This document shows positions 999 to 61,222 of a DNA stretch of 64,000 bases, in pieces. Position 1 is the stretch's first letter; each line of letters opens with the position of its first letter. The translations under genes were made by a program, and so were the position numbers. The notes under the pieces were generated by a model. It saw nothing but the letters and a program-made list of their open reading frames with translations, made no database searches and was not told the DNA's origin. The DNA is taken from positions 2,002-66,001 of the forward strand of contig UQRY01000001.1 of assembly GCA_900543675.1 (NCBI GenBank). The letters are read 5' to 3'. Source of the DNA: an uncultured Mycoplasmatota bacterium (GTDB lineage Bacteria > Bacillota_I > Bacilli_A > RF39 > UBA660).

Positions 999-1058
999 TG
1001 AATAGAGATAAATACTAGAAAGACTAGTATTTTTTCATATCATAGAATGAGGTTAACG

Positions 1059-1364
1059 ATGAAAAAATTTACGATGCGCGATGAAGAATTTATTTGTGAA
1101 CACTGTCATAAACAAGTAGCTAAACTAAATTATACCGCTAGAGATCACTGTCCCTTTTGCCTATACTCTAAACATGTTGATATTTTTCCTGGAGATAGAG
1201 CCAATTCTTGTCATGGATTATTAAAACCAATCGGAATAGAAAAATTTAAAGATAGTTATAAAATTATCTATCGTTGTGAAAAATGTCATCAACAACATAA
1301 AAATATCATCGCCAATGACGATGATATGGATATCATTATCGAATTATCGAAAAACAACAATTAA
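1059..1364 (+). CDS. RNHCP domain zinc-ribbon protein
   Basis: Cys/His pattern CEHCHK...HCPFC...CHG...CEKCH fits the RNHCP domain; GAGG RBS precedes the ATG at 1059. Confidence 0.5.
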   Translation: MKKFTMRDEEFICEHCHKQVAKLNYTARDHCPFCLYSKHVDIFPGDRANSCHGLLKPIGIEKFKDSYKIIYRCEKCHQQHKNIIANDDDMDIIIELSKNNN

Positions 1365-1711
1365 TTTTGTGGTCTAAAGAATAAGCTAAAAATAAAGGTA
1401 AAGACAATAGCCGCCGTAATACCAGAAGCAGTAAGATCAAACATTCCCATTAGTAGTCCCATAATTCCCATATCACTAGCCTTATCTAATGCCCCATGAA
1501 TAAGGGAATGACCAAAACTAGTAATTGGAACTAACGCACCAGCTCCTACGCGATTAATAATCTGATCATAAATACTAAAAGTATCTAAAAAAGCACCAGT
1601 TACCACAAAAATACTAGTAATATGGCCAGCTGTTAATTTTGTATTGTCCAAAATCACTTGACCCAAAAGACAAATAAATCCACAGAACAAGAAAGAAGTT
1701 AAATAGATCAT
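1361..1711 (-). CDS. spoVAEB: Stage V sporulation protein AEB (SpoVAEb)
   Basis: 116-aa membrane protein with motifs ...GAGALVPITSFGHSLIHGA...TASGITAAIVF matching B. subtilis SpoVAEB; last gene of the spoVAC-D-Eb block. Confidence 0.8.
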   Translation of the reverse strand: MIYLTSFLFCGFICLLGQVILDNTKLTAGHITSIFVVTGAFLDTFSIYDQIINRVGAGALVPITSFGHSLIHGALDKASDMGIMGLLMGMFDLTASGITAAIVFTFIFSLFFRPQN

Positions 1712-2703
1712 TTGATAACCTCCAAACTGATTGCATGCGCAATACTTAAAATATTTTCATGTTGATAGACAAAGGTAGGAGAAAATAACGCTCCCGTTGC
1801 GACCAATAATACTTTTTTAATTTTCTTCTTTTTCAACAGTTCTAACACAACACTATAGTTCACTAAAGCACTACATACCGGTCCAGAGCCACCAGCTTGG
1901 ACCTCTTTTTGTTTTTCCAAGTCATAAAGCATAGTACCACAATCATTATAATTTCTACTGATATCTAATTCGTATTCTGTTTTCATGAAATCGATCAAAA
2001 TCTCTTTACCATAAGTCCCTAAATCACCAGTTAAAATCAAATCATAATAATCAGGAGTACGATTTAAATCCATCAAATGACGATGTATCGTATCCGCAGC
2101 AGCAGGCGCCATAACGGCTCCCATATTAAAGGGATCATTCTGTTCATAATCAACAATCCGTCCAATCGTAGAACTTTCTACTTTAATTCCTGTATTTTCA
2201 TTGGTTAATAAAATACTAGCTCCTCCAGTTGCGGTAAATGTTGCGGTCTTCGGTTTTGGTGCTCCATACTCAGTTGGATTACGGAATTGCTTTTCACTAG
2301 ACATATTATGCGATGAAGTAGAAGCAATCGCTCTGTTGACTTTACCACCATCAATTAAACTACTGCCTAAAATCATTCCCTCGACACTTGTCGCACAGGC
2401 ACTGTAAATGCCTAAGAAAGGGAAATTAAATTTTTCAGAAGAATAACAGGAAGAAGTAATTTGATTCATCAAATCTCCTGAAATGATGACATCGATATCC
2501 TCTTTTGTTTTCTTCGTTTTTTTAAGTAAAGCACGAATACTATCTTCTAAAATTTTCGCTTCTGCCGTTTCCCAAGACTTTTCCCCATGATACAAATTAT
2601 CAAATGTCTGATCAAAATATTTTTTTAATGGTCCTTTAGCTTCATAAGGTCCCGCGATCGTTGCTGCATCTTCAACAAATACTTGATTATATTTAAATGT
2701 CAT
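1708..2703 (-). CDS. spoVAD: Stage V sporulation protein AD (SpoVAD)
   Basis: 331 aa, thiolase-fold, N-terminus MTFKYNQVFVEDAATIAGPYEAKGPL typical of SpoVAD; 4-nt overlaps with neighbours. Confidence 0.85.
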   Translation of the reverse strand: MTFKYNQVFVEDAATIAGPYEAKGPLKKYFDQTFDNLYHGEKSWETAEAKILEDSIRALLKKTKKTKEDIDVIISGDLMNQITSSCYSSEKFNFPFLGIYSACATSVEGMILGSSLIDGGKVNRAIASTSSHNMSSEKQFRNPTEYGAPKPKTATFTATGGASILLTNENTGIKVESSTIGRIVDYEQNDPFNMGAVMAPAAADTIHRHLMDLNRTPDYYDLILTGDLGTYGKEILIDFMKTEYELDISRNYNDCGTMLYDLEKQKEVQAGGSGPVCSALVNYSVVLELLKKKKIKKVLLVATGALFSPTFVYQHENILSIAHAISLEVIK

Positions 2704-2706
2704 CTT

Positions 2707-3162
2707 CTAACCTCCCATAATAATCAATCTAAGCATTCCAAAAAACCAAGCCGAAACTACCCCATATAAAATTACACTACCCGCTAATTTAAAAATATTA
2801 CTACCTAATCCAAAAATAGGTCCTTCTTTTCGATATTCGATACCTGCACTCGTCATCGAATGAGCAAAACCAGTAATGGGAATAATTAATCCACACTTAC
2901 AGAAATTTACCCATTTATCAAAGAAACCTAGTGCAGTAAACAAACTAGCTAGAAAGATTAAAGTCACTAGCATAAAGGTAGAAGCATCCTTAGTGGAAAT
3001 CTCAAAAAAACCTGCATAAAACTCTGTTAACAACTGTCCAATTACTCCGACAATACCACCCGTCACAAATGCAATAAACGCATTTTGACTTCTTGTCTCC
3101 GTCGGTTGATGTTTTTTCACCAACTCTTTATATCTTGTCTTTTCCATCCATTTATCACCCAC
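2707..3162 (-). CDS. spoVAC: Stage V sporulation protein AC (SpoVAC)
   Basis: 151-aa membrane protein; ...PITGFAHSMTSAGIEYRKEGPIFGLGSNIFKLAGSVILYGV closely parallels B. subtilis SpoVAC. Confidence 0.85.
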   Translation of the reverse strand: MGDKWMEKTRYKELVKKHQPTETRSQNAFIAFVTGGIVGVIGQLLTEFYAGFFEISTKDASTFMLVTLIFLASLFTALGFFDKWVNFCKCGLIIPITGFAHSMTSAGIEYRKEGPIFGLGSNIFKLAGSVILYGVVSAWFFGMLRLIIMGG

Positions 3163-3214
3163 TAATAGTATGAGGAAAAGAAAAAAATTCTATACAAAAA
3201 GATAGCTACAATTC

Positions 3215-3877
3215 CTAGCTATCTGTTAATACACCTCGTAATTTTTTTAAAATCTTTGTTTCTTCTCGAGAAACTTTTACTTGATTGACCCCTAATACTT
3301 TACTCGTTTCACTTTGAGTCATATCTTCAAAGTAACGGCAAGAGATCAATTTTCTCTCTTCTTCATCTAAATCCTCTACTGCTTGTTTTAAATCAAGCAC
3401 ATCCGCATCATACCCAACTTCTTCATAAGCTAATGTATGATAAAGATTCATTTCTTTTCCTTCATCATCTTCATTTAAAGCATAATCTAAACTACGCACA
3501 AACTCCTGAGACAACATCACTTCTTCAATCACACTACGATCAATCTCTAAAAAATGACTAACTTCATCAATCGTTGGTTCTTTTTGTAGACGTTGTCTAA
3601 GTATCTCCCTAGCCCGCTCAATTGGTTTTACTAACGAAGATAATTCTTTACTGATCTTAATATTTTTATTTTCTCGTACATATTTTAAAATTTCTCCTTT
3701 AATATAAAGAAAAGCATAAGAAGAAAACTTCGTATTCTGGCTAGGATCATAATGATCCAAAGCATTTAATAACCCAATCCTACCTACTTGTATCAAGTCA
3801 TCCATATCATAGTAATAACGAAACTTATTCGCATACGCCACTATTCTTCCTTCATATTCTTGTAAATCGATAGCCAT
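3215..3877 (-). CDS. sigF: Sporulation sigma factor, SigF-like (sigma-70 group 3, short N-terminus)
   Basis: 220 aa; region 2 (YDPSQNTKFSSYAFLYIKGEILKYVREN) and region 4 HTH (QSETSKVLGVNQVKVSREE); position between spoIIAA and the spoVA genes matches the spoIIA operon layout. Confidence 0.6.
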   Translation of the reverse strand: MAIDLQEYEGRIVAYANKFRYYYDMDDLIQVGRIGLLNALDHYDPSQNTKFSSYAFLYIKGEILKYVRENKNIKISKELSSLVKPIERAREILRQRLQKEPTIDEVSHFLEIDRSVIEEVMLSQEFVRSLDYALNEDDEGKEMNLYHTLAYEEVGYDADVLDLKQAVEDLDEEERKLISCRYFEDMTQSETSKVLGVNQVKVSREETKILKKLRGVLTDS

Positions 3878-3933
3878 ATTTTCACCCTTATCTTATTTTA
3901 TTTAAGGACTGCGACCTACAACTACCTAATAAA

Positions 3934-4284
3934 CTAAATATGCATTAAACGAAAAGCACTTAATTCATCACTACTCCTTTCCACATCCGGCAAAGCTTGA
4001 TCTAATTCATCAGCTACTTTTTGATTTAAATGCGATCTATCCCCACAGACAATTAACCTTCCATCATGTAAGACAATATCATGGTAGTGACTCATAATCA
4101 CACTAACCCCTTCTTCATCAAGAAAAGATAAATCCTCCAAATTAATTACAAAATAACGTACTCCATGAACGTGAATCATCCGATCTAATACTTCATTTAA
4201 CTCTTTTGATGTCCGTTTACTAAGAACCCCTTCTAATCGTACAAACAACATCCCATGTACAAACTCCATATCGATTTGGAACAT
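3934..4284 (-). CDS. spoIIAA: Anti-sigma-F factor antagonist SpoIIAA (STAS domain)
   Basis: MFQIDMEFVHGMLFVRLEG...YFVINLEDLSFLDEEGVSVI aligns with B. subtilis SpoIIAA (VLNLEDLSFMDSSG). Strong RBS AAGAGGTGG before the ATG at 4284; the longer track ORF (to 4383) is an unsupported N-extension. Confidence 0.7.
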   Translation of the reverse strand: MFQIDMEFVHGMLFVRLEGVLSKRTSKELNEVLDRMIHVHGVRYFVINLEDLSFLDEEGVSVIMSHYHDIVLHDGRLIVCGDRSHLNQKVADELDQALPDVERSSDELSAFRLMHI

Positions 4285-4379
4285 AATCCACCTCTTATTC
4301 TTGTATATTAAATATAGACCACTTTTCAAAAAAATTATACAACTTCGACAAAACCTCCAAAAAGTTTTAAAAAAAGAAG

Positions 4380-5708
4380 TCATGACAACTTCTTATGAAA
4401 CTCTAAATTTTTAATTATTCTCTTACCTGGTACCTGATCTTGTAAAATTTCATTTAAATCACTTAGCTTACCAACCACTTCCTGTCTTTTCTGAATCAAT
4501 TTTTGTTTTTCTTGTTCTAACTTTCTAATCTCATCGAAACAATCAGGCGCTTCTTCAATTGCGGTTAACACATGGGATAAACGTCGATACTCTTTAGGAT
4601 TAGAAGCATTCTCTCTTCGTGCCACTAAACGCTCCATAACAAAAATTTTAAAATCAGGTCGTGGAAGAATTTTCTCTTGTTCACAAATTCTATCCATAAT
4701 TACAGGAACTAAATCCATAGTTATTTGAAAATTAGGTAGCTCAATAAAATTTAGTAAATCAGAAAACTGTAATTGTTGAACAATTGCTAAATCATTATTT
4801 TTTCTTATCCTAGCAGGTAACTTTTGATAACTAGGATCTTCATATAAACAGCGAAAAGGATAAAGATACTTTTCTTTAGCAATAAAACTAACGATTGAAA
4901 CATCGCCACATTCTCTTTTTAATTTCAAAGAAGAACTGTCCCAACAATACCTACTAACATCGATTCCCATCTTTTGAAAATGAACAAACCAACTATACAT
5001 TTTTTGATCCTTTAATTCATCGATAAACTCTGAAAAAGAGTAACTGCCTTCATCATTGACAAAGGCATCAAACAAAGCTTTTTTCTTTTCTATAACCTCG
5101 TCTTTTTTTCTTCTTTTTAAACCACGGCTATCTTGATCAAAAAAGTATTCTAAAAATTCAAGATTTCTCTTCTTTACCCCTTTCTGACACATCAACTCAA
5201 ATAACATTAACCGACGCTGAAAAGAAATATCAGAAAGTAATAATTCAACAGCCACAGAAAAAGAAGAATCATCTAAACATAAATCAGAAAAACTAAGTTC
5301 ACCAATATCATTTACTCGCCAAGATAATGATCTTAACATATCTAAAGCTTGCTCTCTTTTTTCAGAAAGAGAAAATTCCTTTTCTAATTCTACATCTGGA
5401 ACATGTTCTAGGTCTTCTTTCACATCTAAATACTCATTACATAAATTTTCAAGAATTTGAAAAGGGCCATCTTCTTCAAGTGGGATAAAGACCACATCAG
5501 GATCTTTCCAATCTTGAATTAATTTATCTACTAGTAAACATAAAAGAAAAGAATCTTTTAGTGGCTTTTTTGTAGAAGTCAAATGCTCATAAAGAGCAAG
5601 TAAATCATAAACTGTTTCCTCATTCTTCTTAAACACTTCTATTTTTTTCTCAAGTTCTTTTTTCTGCATATCAATATCCTTGGTATTTTCTACTTCTCCT
5701 ATTGTCAT
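4380..5708 (-). CDS. Hypothetical protein (442 aa), acidic and coiled-coil rich
   Basis: Long ORF co-directional with spoIIAA; no motif recognised by eye. Confidence 0.4.
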   Translation of the reverse strand: MTIGEVENTKDIDMQKKELEKKIEVFKKNEETVYDLLALYEHLTSTKKPLKDSFLLCLLVDKLIQDWKDPDVVFIPLEEDGPFQILENLCNEYLDVKEDLEHVPDVELEKEFSLSEKREQALDMLRSLSWRVNDIGELSFSDLCLDDSSFSVAVELLLSDISFQRRLMLFELMCQKGVKKRNLEFLEYFFDQDSRGLKRRKKDEVIEKKKALFDAFVNDEGSYSFSEFIDELKDQKMYSWFVHFQKMGIDVSRYCWDSSSLKLKRECGDVSIVSFIAKEKYLYPFRCLYEDPSYQKLPARIRKNNDLAIVQQLQFSDLLNFIELPNFQITMDLVPVIMDRICEQEKILPRPDFKIFVMERLVARRENASNPKEYRRLSHVLTAIEEAPDCFDEIRKLEQEKQKLIQKRQEVVGKLSDLNEILQDQVPGKRIIKNLEFHKKLS

Positions 5709-12377: not shown

Positions 12378-13427
12378 TTAATTAAATAAATTTTCACTCA
12401 ATATCCTTTCTACCTCATTAATTAATTCCTCTCGATTAGGGATGTAATATGTGTAAGTAGAAGCAAACACTTTATTGGATAATCCTCCTAAAACATATTC
12501 CATAGTGACATCTTTCTTACCCGCACACAAAATAATTCCAATTGTCTCTTGATCAAATTCATCTTTTACTTCACTATTATAATAATTAATATACATATTC
12601 ATTTGACCAACATATTCTGGCTTCATTTTTTCAGTTTTCAAATCGATCAAGACATAAGATCTCAAAACTTTATTATAAAATACTAAATCAACATAATAGT
12701 GAGTATTATCATCTAAAGTAATTCTCATTTGATGACCAACATACATAAAGCCTTTCCCTAACTCTAATAGAAATGAAGATAAATGATGAATTAAATTCTT
12801 TTCTAATTCACTCTCTCGAACAGGCTTTTCTTCTTTAATTCCTAAAAATTCAAATACATAAGGTTCTTTCAATATATCCGTAGGACTACTGATCTCATTA
12901 CCTTTTTTCGATAATTCATAAACTTTCTCGATATTTTTCTTACCATTAGACAATAATAATCTTTGAAACAATAAAGAATCTATCTGCCTTTTTAACTCTC
13001 TTTTTGACCATCCAGAATTAATACATTCTTTTTCATAAAAGCTTCTTTCTCTATCATCTTCAATATAAATCAAATAGCAATAATGGGACCAACTCAAATT
13101 TCCAGCCAGTGGTTGGAAATTCTTATACCGAATATAAAATAGCCTCATATTATATAACCCTGACAAACTAAATCCTGTCCCATATTTATTCGTTAACCTC
13201 TTAGATAAATTTTTTAATACATCTTTACCGTATTCTGCACGAATATTACCATTTTGTTCATTTTCTACAATAATTTTACCAATAGTAAAATACGTATTCA
13301 CTAAAGTATGATTAATTTGATAAGTCATCTTAGTTTTATTTTCTACAATAATTTTTTCAATCTGATTAAATAATCCATCTACAATCTTTTCATCAATCAT
13401 TGGTTTTTCTGTTTTATTAGTATTCAT
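12378..13427 (-). CDS. YhcG-like DUF1016 protein with C-terminal PD-(D/E)XK nuclease domain
   Basis: 349 aa; C-terminal core ...YVDLVFYNKVLRSYVLIDLKTEK (D...IDLK = PD-(D/E)XK motif); N-domain typical of the YhcG family. Confidence 0.7.
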   Translation of the reverse strand: MNTNKTEKPMIDEKIVDGLFNQIEKIIVENKTKMTYQINHTLVNTYFTIGKIIVENEQNGNIRAEYGKDVLKNLSKRLTNKYGTGFSLSGLYNMRLFYIRYKNFQPLAGNLSWSHYCYLIYIEDDRERSFYEKECINSGWSKRELKRQIDSLLFQRLLLSNGKKNIEKVYELSKKGNEISSPTDILKEPYVFEFLGIKEEKPVRESELEKNLIHHLSSFLLELGKGFMYVGHQMRITLDDNTHYYVDLVFYNKVLRSYVLIDLKTEKMKPEYVGQMNMYINYYNSEVKDEFDQETIGIILCAGKKDVTMEYVLGGLSNKVFASTYTYYIPNREELINEVERILSENLFN

Positions 13428-13546
13428 ATAATTTCCTCCTATAATTTAGTTATTAGTATTGTAGTAAGAAAAACAATAAATGTCTTCCAAATTACAAAAT
13501 TTTCTATTCAACAATATAGCTTATTTAAAATCCAACATCTAACACA

Positions 13547-14551
13547 CTATTGACTTAATTCAAAATTTTTCTTTTCTTCCTCAACAGCAGCGATCAATTC
13601 TTGTTCAGTGGGTAAATGTAGTTGATAAGTAGTAGAAAAAATATTTTTGTTATCTTCTGGAAGTGTATATTTGACAACAGTTTCATTTTTAGTTGTGGAT
13701 AGTAATATTCCCACAGTTGAATTCTCCTCTTCCTGTTTAATTTCTCTATCATAATAATGAACATACATTTGCATTTGTCCAATATCTTGATGAGTTACTT
13801 TTCCTATTTTTAAATCTATAATAACAAAGCATTTTAATAATCGATTATAGAAAACTAAATCTGGATAAAAATGATCTTCCTCTAAAGTTAACCTTACCTG
13901 ATTACCAACATAAGTAAATCCTTTACCAAGTTCCAATAAAAACTCTTTTAAATGTTCTAATATATTCTTTTCTAAATCACTTTCTAAATACCGTGTATTT
14001 TCTTTGATATCAAAAAATTCTAATACAAATGGATCTTTTACTAGATCTTTACTATTCCTTAACACTTGTCCCTTTTCAGACAACTCTAGTATTTTTTTCT
14101 TATCAGCAGATAATAACAATCTTTCATACAACAATGAATCTCTTTGCCTTTGAAGTTCCCTCACACTCCATCTTGAATTTATACATTCGTGCATATAAAA
14201 TTTTCTTTTTGGCTCTTCCTCTATTTTTAGTAACTCTAAATAATGTGACCAACTTAATTACGACGACAGTGTTGTCGTAATTGGAAAATAGATATAAAAC
14301 TTTCTCATCCTCTCTAAATTTCTTTTAGAAAATCCTTTACCAAATTCAGCAGTTAATTTTTCTGACAATTTTTCTAAAACATAATCCCCGTAATTTGCTC
14401 TCTCATCCCCTTGTTGAATATCCATAATTGCTTTACCAATATTCCAATATAAATTAAGCATTTCCGTATTCACAACAGAATAAACTTTATTTCTACTACT
14501 AATAACTAATTCTTTAATATTATCAAATATATGATTAATTTGATTATCCAT
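13547..14551 (-). pseudogene. Second YhcG-like nuclease copy (tandem paralog) interrupted by an in-frame TAA
   Basis: The N-part (14258..14551) and C-part (13547..14194) are in the same frame: read-through gives ...FYIYFPITTTLSS*LSWSHYLELLKIEEEPKRKFYMHECINS..., colinear with copy 1 (...FYIRYKNFQPLAGNLSWSHYCYL...). The 5' flank (14570-14660) repeats the 5' flank of copy 1 (13440-13530). Confidence 0.55.
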
Positions 14552-24739: not shown

Positions 24740-27104
<2,365 letters not shown>

Positions 27105-27112
<8 letters not shown>

Positions 27113-28442
27113 TCTTCTTATCCTCTAAAAAGGAAAATTTCTGAATCATTTCACTCTCACTACAAGGAGAATATTTAGGTTGAATCAATTGATCAAGTAT
27201 CTTTTTTCCTTCAAATATTTTTGTTTGTAACTCTTTACTCATTTCGTCGATATTGGCCAATTCATAAATTTCTCTTGTTTCCAAATAACTAAGTAACTTA
27301 CGTCTTACTGTAGCTCCTAATTTTTTCATATCCTGAGTTTGAACTGAACCACCTAAACGGGAAACAGAAAGTCCATAATCGATAGCTGGTTTTTCTCCTT
27401 TTTGAAAACTCTTAGAAGATAATACAATCTGACCATCTGTGATAGAAATAATATTAGTCGAAATATAATCCGTAATATCTCCACCCTTAGTTTCAACAAC
27501 TGGTAGAATCGTTATACTAGCCCCATTTTTATACTGACAGCCTTTTTCTAATAATCTAGAATGTAAATAGAAGATATCTGATGGATAAGCATCTCTTCCT
27601 GGAGATTTTCCAGAAATCAAACTGATCTCTCGATAAGCATCAGCATGTCGTTTTAAATCATCTAAAATAACTAAAACATCATAACCTTGCTTCATATACT
27701 TTTCCGCTACTGATAAAGCATAATAAGGAGTTAAAACAAGTACTGGTGGCATTTCATCATTAAAAGCAGTAATGATAATCGTATAACTCATAGCGTTTTT
27801 CTTTAATAAATCATAATATATCTCTTTAACTTCTTTTTTTGTTTTCCCGATCGCACAATAGATACAGATCACATTTTTACCACGCTGATTAACAATCGTA
27901 TCTAAACAAATCTGACTCTTTCCTGTTTTTTTATCCCCGATAATCAATTGTCTTTGACCTCTACCAATCGGATAAATCAAATCAATTCCTGTTATTCCTG
28001 TCTGAAGTGGTCGTTTTACCGCTGTACGATCCATAATCGGAATAGGGTCTTCTTCAATTTTTACTTTTTCTTGATTTTGAAATTTCTTACCAATTAACTG
28101 ATCGATACCAAAAATATTAATCATTCTACCCAAGGCATCTTGAGAAAACTCCCCCATATATTCTTCATTAGTCTGATAAGCCAAATCTCCTATGGTAAGT
28201 TCCTCATCCTTATGTAAAATGGCAACAAATATACGATTGGTCTCAATCTTCGTTACATAACCAAGCGCTTTATTCGCTAAATTGATCTTTTCATAGAAAA
28301 AGACATCATCTAAGCCAACAACTTCGACGATAAACTCTTTCATATTGGTAATTTTCCCAACCCCAAATTGATTATTGTTACTTTCTATTCTCTGCATCTT
28401 ATCATTAACGATTCTGGTTAACTCATCTTCTTTTTCCACCAT
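27105..28442 (-). CDS. atpA: F-type ATPase alpha-like subunit
   Basis: 445 aa; Walker A GDKKTGKSQI; ...YREISLISGKSPGRDAYPSDIFYLHSRLLE...TDYISTNIISITDGQIVL near-colinear with canonical alpha; C-terminal domain shortened. Confidence 0.8.
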
Positions 28443-56009: not shown

Positions 56010-56735
56010 TTAAGGTAAAAAGTCAATGCAAAACCTTGCCATATGAGCAATAAAGCTATCCGCATAAAGCTTCGCAAATTCAAGTTCAGAAGGCTTAGTA
56101 ATTGTCCAAACAAAAATAGGAATTTGTCTTTTTCTGAGTTTGGAAATAAAAGTTGACGTTAAGCCTTCAAAATCAACAGAAACAAAATCGACATTGAGTA
56201 ATTGATCAACAATAAAAACAGAATGGACAATTGGATAATAAAAAACACTCTGTAATTTCCGGTTACTACTAACCAATAACCCAGTCGGATAATTTGTTTT
56301 TTTCTTCCACCACCAAACAACGCGAATATCAAAAGACTGAATCATCACTTCACCTGAATAGTTTTTTAATAAATCATAAACTTTTCGAGATAATAACGCA
56401 AAATTTCTCCCTCTTTTAATCTCAATTAATAAAAGTACTTTTCCTTTTACCAAATCGAGGACTTCCTTTAGAGTAGGAATCTTTGCTGGAGAAGAAGATA
56501 ATTTAAGTTTTCGTAACTCTTGAAAAGTAGTTTTTTCTACTTCTAAAGAAACTCCCGTCATAGAAAGAGTATTTTTATCATGAAAAACAACAACCTCTTC
56601 ATCCAATGACAATTGAACATCCAACTCAATCGGAATAGAGTTCTCTACACACTGATAAAAAGCAGGCAAACTATTTTCAGGATGAGTTTTATCCCAACAA
56701 CCCCTATGCGCAATGATCAAATTCTGGTAATTCAT
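56010..56735 (-). CDS. Glycerophosphodiester phosphodiesterase family protein
   Basis: GDPD motifs HRG (IIAHRGCW), ENSLPAF, ELDVQLSLDEEVVVFHD. Confidence 0.7.
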   Translation of the reverse strand: MNYQNLIIAHRGCWDKTHPENSLPAFYQCVENSIPIELDVQLSLDEEVVVFHDKNTLSMTGVSLEVEKTTFQELRKLKLSSSPAKIPTLKEVLDLVKGKVLLLIEIKRGRNFALLSRKVYDLLKNYSGEVMIQSFDIRVVWWWKKKTNYPTGLLVSSNRKLQSVFYYPIVHSVFIVDQLLNVDFVSVDFEGLTSTFISKLRKRQIPIFVWTITKPSELEFAKLYADSFIAHMARFCIDFLP

Positions 56736-57004
56736 GTTCTACTTCCTCATCTATACAACTATTCTTATACTTTCTAGTATAAGTGACTAACTTAATATAG
56801 TTCATTTTCTCTTCCATACGAGACAACACCTCTATCACATCTAAATAATTCATATAATCACCAATTATACTGTACTACACTTTTTTAAAAGAAGAAATAA
56901 ATTCGACAAAACTTCTAAAAATTTGCAGGTAAACAAAAGAGTTTTTTTGCGATAAATATGGTAAATTTTTCTTATCTATAGTATAATAAACCATAGGTGA
57001 AAAA

Positions 57005-60529: not shown

Positions 60530-61222
60530 CGCCTATAAGGCTCGTTCTCTGGCGTCGCTTTAAAGCGATACTACGATCCGCCACTTGCATAACCTATTTC
60601 TTGCTACCCGTAAACGGGTCTATTTGATCTATTGTTAATTGTTCTGCTATTTCGTCTTCTTTCAATTGATTCTCTATATATCTCTGTATTGCAATGGCAT
60701 TTTTTCCTGCCGTATCTACATAATAGCCTCGACACCAAAATTCTCGATTCCTGTACTTATATTTCATATTTCCCCATCGTTCATATATCATTATACTGCT
60801 TTTCCCTTTCAAGAATCCCATAAAAGAAGAGACACTCATCTTTGGTGGAATTTCTACAAACATATGCACATGATCTATACATACTTCTGCTGTTATTATA
60901 TTTACACCTTTCCACCTACATAACTCTCTCAATATCTTTCCTATTTCCAAACGATTATTTCCATAAAATACTTTTCTTCTATATTTAGGTGCAAAAACAA
61001 TATGATATTTACAATTCCACGATGTATGTGATAAACTATTTATGTCATTTTTCATAAATTGACCTCCTTCTGCTTTTTATTTGCAATGGCGAATCGCAAA
61101 TTTATTATAGCAGAAGGAGTTTTTTTATCAAAGACTCATCGCTAAAGCTCCATTGAACCACCAGACTATCTGGTGGTTTTCTTTATACAATTAACCTCTG
61201 CATTAAGCAGAGGTTTTTAATT
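60530..61222 (-). mobile_element. IS200/IS605-family insertion sequence (IS200-like, ~0.7 kb) filling the ponA-zupT intergenic region
   Basis: Complete tnpA plus subterminal hairpins: TCGCTTTAAAGCGA and ACCCGTAAACGGGT on the right side; CCACCAGACTATCTGGTGG and CCTCTGCATTAAGCAGAGG on the left. Element size matches IS200 (~700 bp). Exact ends not determinable by eye. Confidence 0.55.
60594..61055 (-). CDS. tnpA: IS200/IS605 family transposase TnpA (HUH Y1 transposase)
   Basis: 153 aa, near-colinear with Salmonella IS200 TnpA: HTSWNCKYHIVFAPKYRR..., HUH motif IDHVHMFVEIPPKMSVS, catalytic Tyr region NREFWCRGYYVDTAG, C-terminal ...QLTIDQIDPFTGSKK. Confidence 0.85.
   Translation of the reverse strand: MKNDINSLSHTSWNCKYHIVFAPKYRRKVFYGNNRLEIGKILRELCRWKGVNIITAEVCIDHVHMFVEIPPKMSVSSFMGFLKGKSSIMIYERWGNMKYKYRNREFWCRGYYVDTAGKNAIAIQRYIENQLKEDEIAEQLTIDQIDPFTGSKK

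Follow-up and report, generated by a model that had tools for sequence, protein, structure and literature searches.

A STAS gene and a sigma factor gene at the position of the spoIIA operon

We analyzed a contiguous stretch of 64,000 nucleotides, hereafter called the window, from the genome of an uncultured Mycoplasmatota bacterium of the RF39 lineage (contig UQRY01000001.1, positions 2,002 to 66,001). On its minus strand, a gene encoding a STAS-domain protein is directly followed by a gene encoding a sigma factor of the sigma-F type, with no gene for the anti-sigma kinase SpoIIAB between them. The pair is probably orthologous to the spoIIA operon (spoIIAA-spoIIAB-sigF), with a phosphorylation-dependent partner switch that has been dismantled and a STAS protein and a sigma factor kept together under purifying selection. 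The genes of the locus are the following:

3934-4284, minus strand: STAS gene, 116 aa (PF01740, E 9.7e-11, 41.8 bits)
3878-3933, minus strand: intergenic spacer of 56 nt, the slot of spoIIAB in the canonical operon, holding the ribosome-binding site (RBS) of the sigma gene (AAGGGTGA) and no open reading frame (ORF)
3215-3877, minus strand: sigma-F-type gene, 220 aa, with sigma-70 regions 2, 3, and 4 identified by Pfam
2707-3162, 1708-2703, and 1361-1711, minus strand: spoVAC, spoVAD, and spoVAE, respectively (PF03862, PF07451)
4380-5708, minus strand: ORF of 442 aa without assigned family, 5' of the STAS gene

Read along the minus strand, the locus runs from the 442-aa ORF through the STAS and sigma genes to spoVAC, spoVAD, and spoVAE, after which come a convergent RNHCP gene and scpA. 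The spoVA genes (1361-3162) exceed the cutoffs of the models TIGR02845 (414 bits) and TIGR02839 (131.6 bits), and a gene for a Coat_F protein was found in the 64-kb window. An earlier analysis of this DNA that used the letters alone (the sequence-only reading) had listed SpoVA and CotF among the sporulation genes present and had reported a gap of 56 nt without spoIIAB between the spoIIAA-like and sigF genes. We recovered SpoVAC, SpoVAD, SpoVAE, and Coat_F, and the lack of spoIIAB in the gap holds by ORF analysis, Pfam, and tblastn.

The automatic ORF list gave an upstream ATG at position 4383 as the start of the STAS gene. We discarded it on the evidence of RBS, promoter, and homologue N-termini, and place the true start at 4284, because a strong RBS (AAGAGGTG, 4289-4296) precedes it, a conserved promoter (see below) fills 4285-4379, and all homologues begin with MFQI or MLEI.

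A SpoIIAA homologue without the phosphorylated serine

The best NCBIfam model for the STAS protein is the SpoIIAA equivalog TIGR02886, with a score of 51.7 bits that remains below the cutoff of 114.75. When the profile of the family was compared with the sequences of the PDB, the best match was the SpoIIAA of Geobacillus (1TH8_B, E 2e-18), and that of B. subtilis (1AUZ_A) matched at 1.7e-16. The AlphaFold model of the protein shows the beta-alpha pattern expected for a STAS domain (pLDDT 70.7). Foldseek ranks the SpoIIAA chains of two SpoIIAA-SpoIIAB complexes, 1THN and 1TH8, first among the matches of this model (probability 1.00), with a superposition limited to the ~65 N-terminal residues.

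In these comparisons, residues D56-E57-E58-G59 of the window protein correspond to D57-S58-S59-G60 of SpoIIAA. The sequence-only reading had placed a Glu-Glu pair opposite Ser58-Ser59, and this register is upheld by four independent alignments: MAFFT, the profile against 1TH8_B and 1AUZ_A, hmmalign, and the AlphaFold model. Glu57 caps the helix 57-66 of the model, a position that we take to be the site of Ser58 in the published structures of SpoIIAA. The protein has therefore a Glu (Glu57) in place of the phospho-acceptor Ser58, and it also has Val20 in place of Glu21.

Both replacements extend to the whole family. We scanned one genome per species (GTDB) and identified the STAS family in 25 species, with an intact reading frame in every one. 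The position of Ser58 is occupied by Glu in 21 of the 25 genomes, by Cys in two, and by Asp and Gln in one each; Ser and Thr are absent. At the position of Glu21, we found Val (11 genomes), Ile (9), or Lys (5), and never Glu, and at the position of Asp23 we found Ser, Asp, Asn, or Thr. In the characterized system, it is the clash of SpoIIAA Glu21 with Asp148 of sigma-F that frees sigma-F from SpoIIAB, and in RsbV the loop with Asp23 is among the contacts with RsbW (PMC7340262). Since Ser58 and Glu21 are both replaced, the STAS protein has lost the handle of the kinase as well as the switching residue.

The protein thus combines features on both sides of the definition of SpoIIAA. It has the STAS fold, SpoIIAA as its nearest relative of solved structure, and the orthologous position among dacF, sigF, and spoVA; it falls short of the equivalog cutoff, and has neither Ser58, nor an acidic residue 21, nor a place directly upstream of spoIIAB. 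We conclude that it clearly descends from SpoIIAA, despite failing several of the features that define this family.

The sigma factor is closest to sigma-F

The sigma factor scores 171.6 bits with the model of the SigB/F/G subfamily. Among the more specific models, the SigF equivalog (TIGR02885) gives 154 bits, versus 117 and 107 for SigG and 107 for SigB; all these scores are under the curated cutoffs, which for SigF is 321.45. The best PDB match is the sigma-F of the SpoIIAB-sigma-F complex (1L0O_C), with 118.9 bits versus 89 for the next one. By model scores, structure match, and synteny, the protein does group with SigF, to which the sequence-only reading had assigned it. A search for homologues with the window protein returned proteins of the clade only; an identical protein is found on 61 contigs, and the name given by NCBI goes no further than 'sigma-70 family'.

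The N-terminus of this sigma factor is ~33 residues shorter than that of B. subtilis sigma-F, a trait shared by the whole clade, and region 1.2 and the start of region 2.1 are absent. The offset of ~33 residues agrees with the HMM and PDB alignments. The sigma factor had been described as lacking region 1, which is right for region 1.2 and less informative for region 1.1: to our knowledge, group-3 sigma factors never have the latter.

Conservation of the pair across gut Bacilli

The 25 species with the STAS family are represented by metagenome-assembled genomes (MAGs) of uncultured 'Bacilli', 'Tenericutes', or 'Bacillales' from the gut of humans, mice, chickens, and rabbits. The closest named relative is Candidatus Scybalousia (now Alloscybalousia) intestinigallinarum. 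The 'Uncultured Tenericutes' MAGs of the human gut, including UQOS01 (locus L022 in our set), correspond to the RF39/RFN20 gut lineages (PMC7301438). By these relationships, the order of the window is probably RF39 or RFN20, and RF39 is the likelier of the two, being the only order for which a lack of spoIIAB is reported.

The sigma gene lies directly 3' of the STAS gene in all 25 genomes, at a distance of 8-62 nt (8-14 nt in most), and the two genes overlap in the loci L031 and L035. The shared context consists of dacF, a variable gene, the STAS and sigma genes, a protein of 245 aa (in one subfamily), spoVAC/AD/AE, RNHCP, and scpAB, and matches that of the canonical spoIIA operon. The subfamily in question has a STAS protein of 114 aa. 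The additional gene, between sigma and spoVAC, encodes a Cys-rich protein of 241-250 aa with an N-terminal hydrophobic segment and no Pfam match (7499-8233 in L002, with equivalents in L017-L028); it is absent from the window. In B. subtilis, this slot between sigF and spoVAC is occupied by spoVAA/AB.

We then used the profile of the family on a much larger set. Of 1.84 billion cluster representatives, 892 matched, and we examined the best 150. Only 4 of these best 150 have the canonical residues (Glu21 and DSSG, as in GELDHH...FMDSSGL). The remaining 146 keep the D-x-x-G motif and have at the phospho-site Lys (22), Glu (21), Ser (17), Leu (16), Asn (13), Ile (13), Asp (9), Met (8), or others. 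Five distant members were sampled for their genomic context, and in four of them the STAS gene is directly upstream of, or overlaps, a short sigma gene, and a kinase gene is absent between the two: P0101, which has Leu at the phospho-site, and P0077, P0172, and P0094, which all have Ser. Hence, the sampled members of the wider clade that bear Ser are also without spoIIAB in the operon. The fifth, P0044 (with Lys at the phospho-site; locus L037, on a contig of 2 kb), has no sigma gene downstream.

The sequence-only reading had regarded the antagonist as constitutively phosphomimetic. The S58D variant of SpoIIAA is reportedly inactive, in work ascribed to Diederich et al. (1994). The term is too narrow, because Glu is common only in the subfamily of the window (21 of the 25 species), the site is variable in the wider clade (Lys, Leu, Ile, Met, Asn, or Ser), and the sampled members with Ser also lack spoIIAB in the operon. 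The phospho-site appears to have been released from constraint after the loss of the kinase, and not selected for its negative charge, and Glu to have become fixed in the subfamily of the window.

Searches for the kinase

We searched for the missing kinase in the 64-kb window and in the ±10 kb around related loci. With the SpoIIAB of B. subtilis as query, tblastn gave no match at E<=10 in the ~0.55 Mb that these sequences represent. No gene with a HATPase_c domain was found in the operon, in the window, or in the ±10 kb flanks of ~30 related loci, and most window ORFs of at least 90 aa, when scanned with Pfam, revealed neither a GHKL kinase nor a PP2C phosphatase. As a positive control, the same query matched, with 64% identity, the gene that follows a canonical STAS gene, which shows that the method and the query both work.

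These results can be placed beside what is known of sporulation genes. The three spoIIA genes are contiguous in all known spore-formers (PMC3533761), as exemplified by Turicibacter, which has the three in canonical succession (PMC13492147), and a genome-based prediction of sporulation found spoIIAB in every predicted spore-former (PMC12536801). The canonical genes have also been described as highly conserved throughout the lineages of firmicutes (bioRxiv 10.1101/2022.02.25.481979). The RF39 genomes depart from this rule: according to a survey based on KO annotations, they largely lack spoIIAB and spoIIE and keep many other sporulation genes (Field, Bowerman & Hugenholtz 2024, PMC10868615). In the searched part of this work, which covers RF39, RFN20, and ML615J-28, there is no account of the retention of spoIIAA, of the loss of the phospho-site and Glu21, of purifying selection, or of a conserved promoter, and the term 'spoIIAA' has zero occurrences in its main text. 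Our literature searches returned no description of a retained, Ser-less, and strongly constrained SpoIIAA homologue.

A conserved promoter, a candidate operator, and probable terminators

The non-coding sequences around the pair contain several elements:

4334-4362, minus strand: core promoter of the STAS operon, with a weak -35-like element (TTTGGA region), TTTGTCGAA in the spacer, and a TATAAT -10 element at 4334-4339
4344-4350, minus strand: perfect Spo0A-box heptamer, within TTTGTCGAA
4303-4317, minus strand: candidate operator, a palindrome (CTATATTTAATATAC) 3' of the -10 element and 5' of the RBS
4370-4394, minus strand: probable terminator at the stop codon of the 442-aa gene, which it overlaps, with a hairpin and a T-run (AAGAAGT-TGTCATG-ACTTCTT TTTTT)
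3200-3224, minus strand: hairpin resembling an intrinsic terminator, with a 9-bp stem and a T-run, overlapping the 3' end of the sigma gene
3166-3195, minus strand: promoter of the forespore type (GTATA-N18-CATACTA), directly upstream of spoVAC

The region upstream of the STAS gene is better conserved than the coding sequences. Across loci, the alignment shows a block of the form TTTTG..A...TTTGTCGAA..tGT ATAAA, which is also found in the distant loci L031, L033, and L037, and the layout typical of the clade is a -35-like TTGaca, a spacer with TTTGTCGAA, and TATAAA or TATAAT. Of 26 sequences, 22 have the exact heptamer TGTCGAA, the consensus of the Spo0A box in B. subtilis, at a distance of 61-69 nt on the 5' side of the start codon; L031, L033, and L037 have it too. 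Its interest lies in this conserved position and not in an enrichment, since the 9-mer TTTGTCGAA has 2 matches in the window for 1.1 expected. The conservation suggests that Spo0A may bind at the STAS promoter. The other exact match of TTTGTCGAA in the window (56902-56910, minus strand) precedes a gene for a glycerophosphodiester phosphodiesterase (56010-56735) by ~170 nt.

Almost every related locus has the palindrome CTATATTTAATATAC, whose conservation exceeds that of the coding sequence. Its consensus over 27 upstream regions is cTATATT.AAtatA, at 60-80% or more, and it appears as CTATATTwAATATAC ~15-20 nt before the RBS.

The hairpin at 4370-4394 is conserved in the loci L005-L007 and L029, and probably insulates the STAS operon from the 442-aa gene; with fewer than 3 G-C pairs, it escaped the terminator scan. 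At the other end, related loci have an equivalent of the hairpin at 3200-3224 in front of spoVAC. Given this terminator-like hairpin and the separate promoter of spoVAC, the STAS and sigma genes form a bicistronic unit, probably driven by Spo0A. The motif GHATR-N17-18-CAHWHTA, a consensus for promoters of the sigma-G/F type known from B. subtilis, has only 2 matches in the window, one of which is the one at spoVAC. Its strict form is present at spoVAC in 9 of 24 loci, with near-matches in most others, and to judge from this motif the spoVA operon still looks dependent on a forespore sigma factor.

Selection and co-evolution

We computed dN/dS between the window and its four closest relatives, over dS values of 0.15-1.3. 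The ratio is 0.03-0.065 for the STAS gene and 0.025-0.105 for the sigma gene, and reaches 0.16-0.26 for the neighbouring 442-aa gene. The evolutionary distances of the two proteins also go together: in a mirror-tree analysis, the partial correlation between STAS and sigma is 0.60-0.66 when controlling for the SpoVA proteins, and the correlation between STAS and SpoVA ranges from -0.05 to 0.38. This lends weak support to a co-evolution of STAS and sigma.

The sequence-only reading had left the choice between a remodelled and a decayed module. The first term is the appropriate one, as the kinase gene is gone from the operon in every relative examined and Ser58 and Glu21 are lost. The second is unsupported, because the dN/dS values are low, the promoter and terminator are conserved, and the coupling to sigma is tight. 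Judged from these comparisons, the remodelled operon is a trait of the lineage and not a sign of decay.

Genes around the operon

The gene upstream of the STAS gene was considered as a replacement anti-sigma factor. We rejected it as an obligatory partner, since its family is narrow and fast-evolving, and since a probable terminator and the promoter lie between it and the STAS gene. The 442-aa protein has no match in Pfam or NCBIfam, and its AlphaFold model is all-alpha (pLDDT 69) without significant fold match in the PDB. Its family is confined to the closest relatives and two remote homologues at 24-26% identity. In other loci, the gene upstream of STAS belongs to one of at least three groups without detectable mutual homology, or is dacF; other members of the clade have in this slot unrelated genes of 390-470 aa that lack Pfam matches.

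The RNHCP zinc-ribbon gene (1047-1364, plus strand) is convergent with spoVAE, and all the related loci examined, even the distant L033, have it in this slot between spoVAE and scpA. On the other side, dacF, VanY, and pdp (36.7-40 kb) are 32 kb away from the STAS operon in the window, and dacF is ~2 kb upstream of it in L001 and L008. This displacement is due to a block of ~31 kb inserted at 5762-36118, which encodes a P-type ATPase, a DUF285/BspA-LRR protein, an ABC transporter, and two ORFs of 2924 aa (with a GLUG motif) and 1742 aa (fn3). The block also has a cluster of F1-like ATPase alpha, beta, and gamma genes (24985-28442) resembling the extra F1-like ATPases of mycoplasmas. Two adjacent genes for YhcG/DUF1016 nucleases of the PD-(D/E)XK type are found at 12378-14551 (minus strand). 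The first (12378-13427) is intact; the second, probably a frameshifted pseudogene, is broken into two ORFs, one for the C-terminal part (13547-14194) and one for the N-terminal part (14258-14551). Finally, an IS200-type Y1 transposase gene (60594-61055, minus strand) has directly 5' of it a match to the Rfam family STnc490 (61065-61178, 58.6 bits for a gathering score of 56), which is probably a structured leader of the insertion sequence.

Interpretation of the kinase-less operon

Taken together, these results make it probable that the locus is an orthologue of the spoIIA operon in which partner switching by phosphorylation was dismantled. The SpoIIAB kinase, the SpoIIE phosphatase, and Ser58 would then have been abandoned as one unit, and SpoIIAB and SpoIIE would be absent from the whole genome. 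In such a circuit, Spo0A would switch on the STAS-sigma operon, and the output of sigma-F would be set mainly by the transcription of this operon. The STAS protein would act on sigma-F in a stoichiometric and phosphorylation-free manner, either by direct binding or through a partner that is not of the GHKL type.

Several observations weigh against this interpretation. Both proteins score under the equivalog cutoffs of NCBIfam. D56, G59, and much of the core of the STAS domain still resemble SpoIIAA, a resemblance that would permit docking on a partner of the conventional kind, and a SpoIIAB-type or other anti-sigma factor may be encoded elsewhere in the genome; the result of the RF39 survey may not apply to the genome of the window. 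In the mirror-tree analysis, the control pair sigma-SpoVAD reaches 0.56. Finally, there is no observation of sporulation for these organisms, and a sporulation predictor gives the RF39 MAGs a probability of 0% (PMC12536801).

A bolder version of this interpretation holds that these gut Bacilli do sporulate without SpoIIAB and SpoIIE, that the STAS protein is a direct and phosphorylation-independent regulator of sigma-F in a module of two proteins, and that sigma-F is activated in the forespore by a mechanism other than that regarded as universal in spore-formers. We regard it as a tentative possibility.

There is a smaller chance that the module was relocated, with the gene for an anti-sigma factor akin to SpoIIAB or RsbW at another place in the genome and the STAS protein acting as a non-phosphorylatable, or permanently inactive, antagonist. 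The kinase searches covered the window and the flanks of the related loci, conservation extends to the D-x-x-G loop and the STAS core, and there are precedents of the kind of M. tuberculosis RsfA, in which a non-phosphorylatable anti-anti-sigma factor acts on a GHKL anti-sigma factor. However, Glu21 and Ser58 are both gone in all 25 genomes, and the bulky or charged residues found at the phospho-site (Lys, Leu, Ile, Met, Glu) are hard to fit against the ATP lid of a kinase. The contiguity of the three genes in all known spore-formers (PMC3533761, PMC13492147) and the lack of spoIIAB and spoIIE in RF39 according to the KO survey (PMC10868615) also speak against a relocated kinase.

It is similarly unlikely that the job of the STAS protein is unrelated to sigma-F, that it has another target, like SypA, and that its gene stands beside sigF only for a shared transcriptional timing. 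The partners of STAS domains are diverse, SypA itself acts on a non-sigma target downstream of its kinase (PMC10120452), and P0044 lacks a sigma gene downstream, albeit on a short contig. Against this, a sigma gene is adjacent in 25 of 25 genomes and in four of the five distant samples, the spacing is tight, with overlaps in L031 and L035, and the STAS and sigma distances remain correlated, if weakly so, after the control for SpoVA.

We find it very unlikely that the sigma factor is not an orthologue of SigF at all, being instead of the SigG or SigB type or a merged forespore sigma factor, in which case the absence of SpoIIAB would not be a loss from a spoIIA operon. Its 154 bits are far from the SigF cutoff of 321, and the NCBI label is unspecific. 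Yet SigF outscores SigG and SigB, 1L0O_C is the best structure, the synteny from dacF to spoVA is that of spoIIA, and the partner STAS protein is closer to SpoIIAA than to RsbV.

Finally, we find it extremely unlikely that the pair is a sporulation relic in decay, left over in a lineage that has stopped forming spores: related orders do lose sporulation genes stepwise, as described in the RF39 survey (PMC10868615), the predictor gives the RF39 MAGs 0% (PMC12536801), and both proteins are under the curated family cutoffs, but the STAS dN/dS stays at 0.03-0.065 over dS of up to ~1.3, the frames are intact in 25 of 25 species, promoter, RBS, and terminator are conserved, and spoVAC/AD/AE, Coat_F, and dacF are intact, spoVAC having a promoter of the forespore type.

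Comparison with known systems and significance

The closest known system is SpoIIAA-SpoIIAB-sigma-F of B. subtilis and Geobacillus. The likeness includes dacF upstream, spoVA downstream, a Spo0A-box heptamer in the promoter, and best structural matches to SpoIIAA (1TH8_B, 1THN_B, 1AUZ) and to sigma-F (1L0O_C). In contrast to the spoIIA operon of these species, the operon of the window is bicistronic, has no spoIIAB, encodes a STAS protein without Ser58 and Glu21 and a sigma factor ~33 residues shorter, and gives scores below the cutoffs. The RsbV-RsbW-sigma-B system also has the gene of a STAS antagonist beside that of a group-3 sigma factor, and the fold of RsbV (6M36) is matched after that of SpoIIAA. 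However, this and similar switches need a GHKL anti-sigma kinase, a phosphorylatable Ser (Ser56 in RsbV), and an acidic residue 21, none of which is found at the locus of the window. The third case is SypA, which controls biofilm in V. fischeri, is a STAS protein of a single domain, and acts otherwise than by releasing a sigma factor from a GHKL anti-sigma factor. SypA is switched by phosphorylation of Ser56, and its S56D mimic is inactive (PMC10120452), whereas the STAS protein of the window has no phosphorylatable residue at this site and is tied to a sigma gene.

The gene-content survey of RF39 reports the same phenomenon at the level of presence and absence (PMC10868615). The absence of spoIIAB and spoIIE was thus already noted at that level, and what is new relative to the searched part of the survey is the retention of a constrained, Ser-less STAS protein, together with its promoter. 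A sigma-F operon without a kinase contradicts, in a common lineage of the gut, one of the 'universals' of sporulation genetics, and calls for caution when sporulation is predicted from marker genes in uncultured gut bacteria. The operon may show a way in which the first cell-fate switch of sporulation can run without phosphorylation, or else the role of a STAS-sigma pair under a simplified control of sporulation. Either way, it provides a natural experiment on the minimal regulatory circuit of sigma-F.

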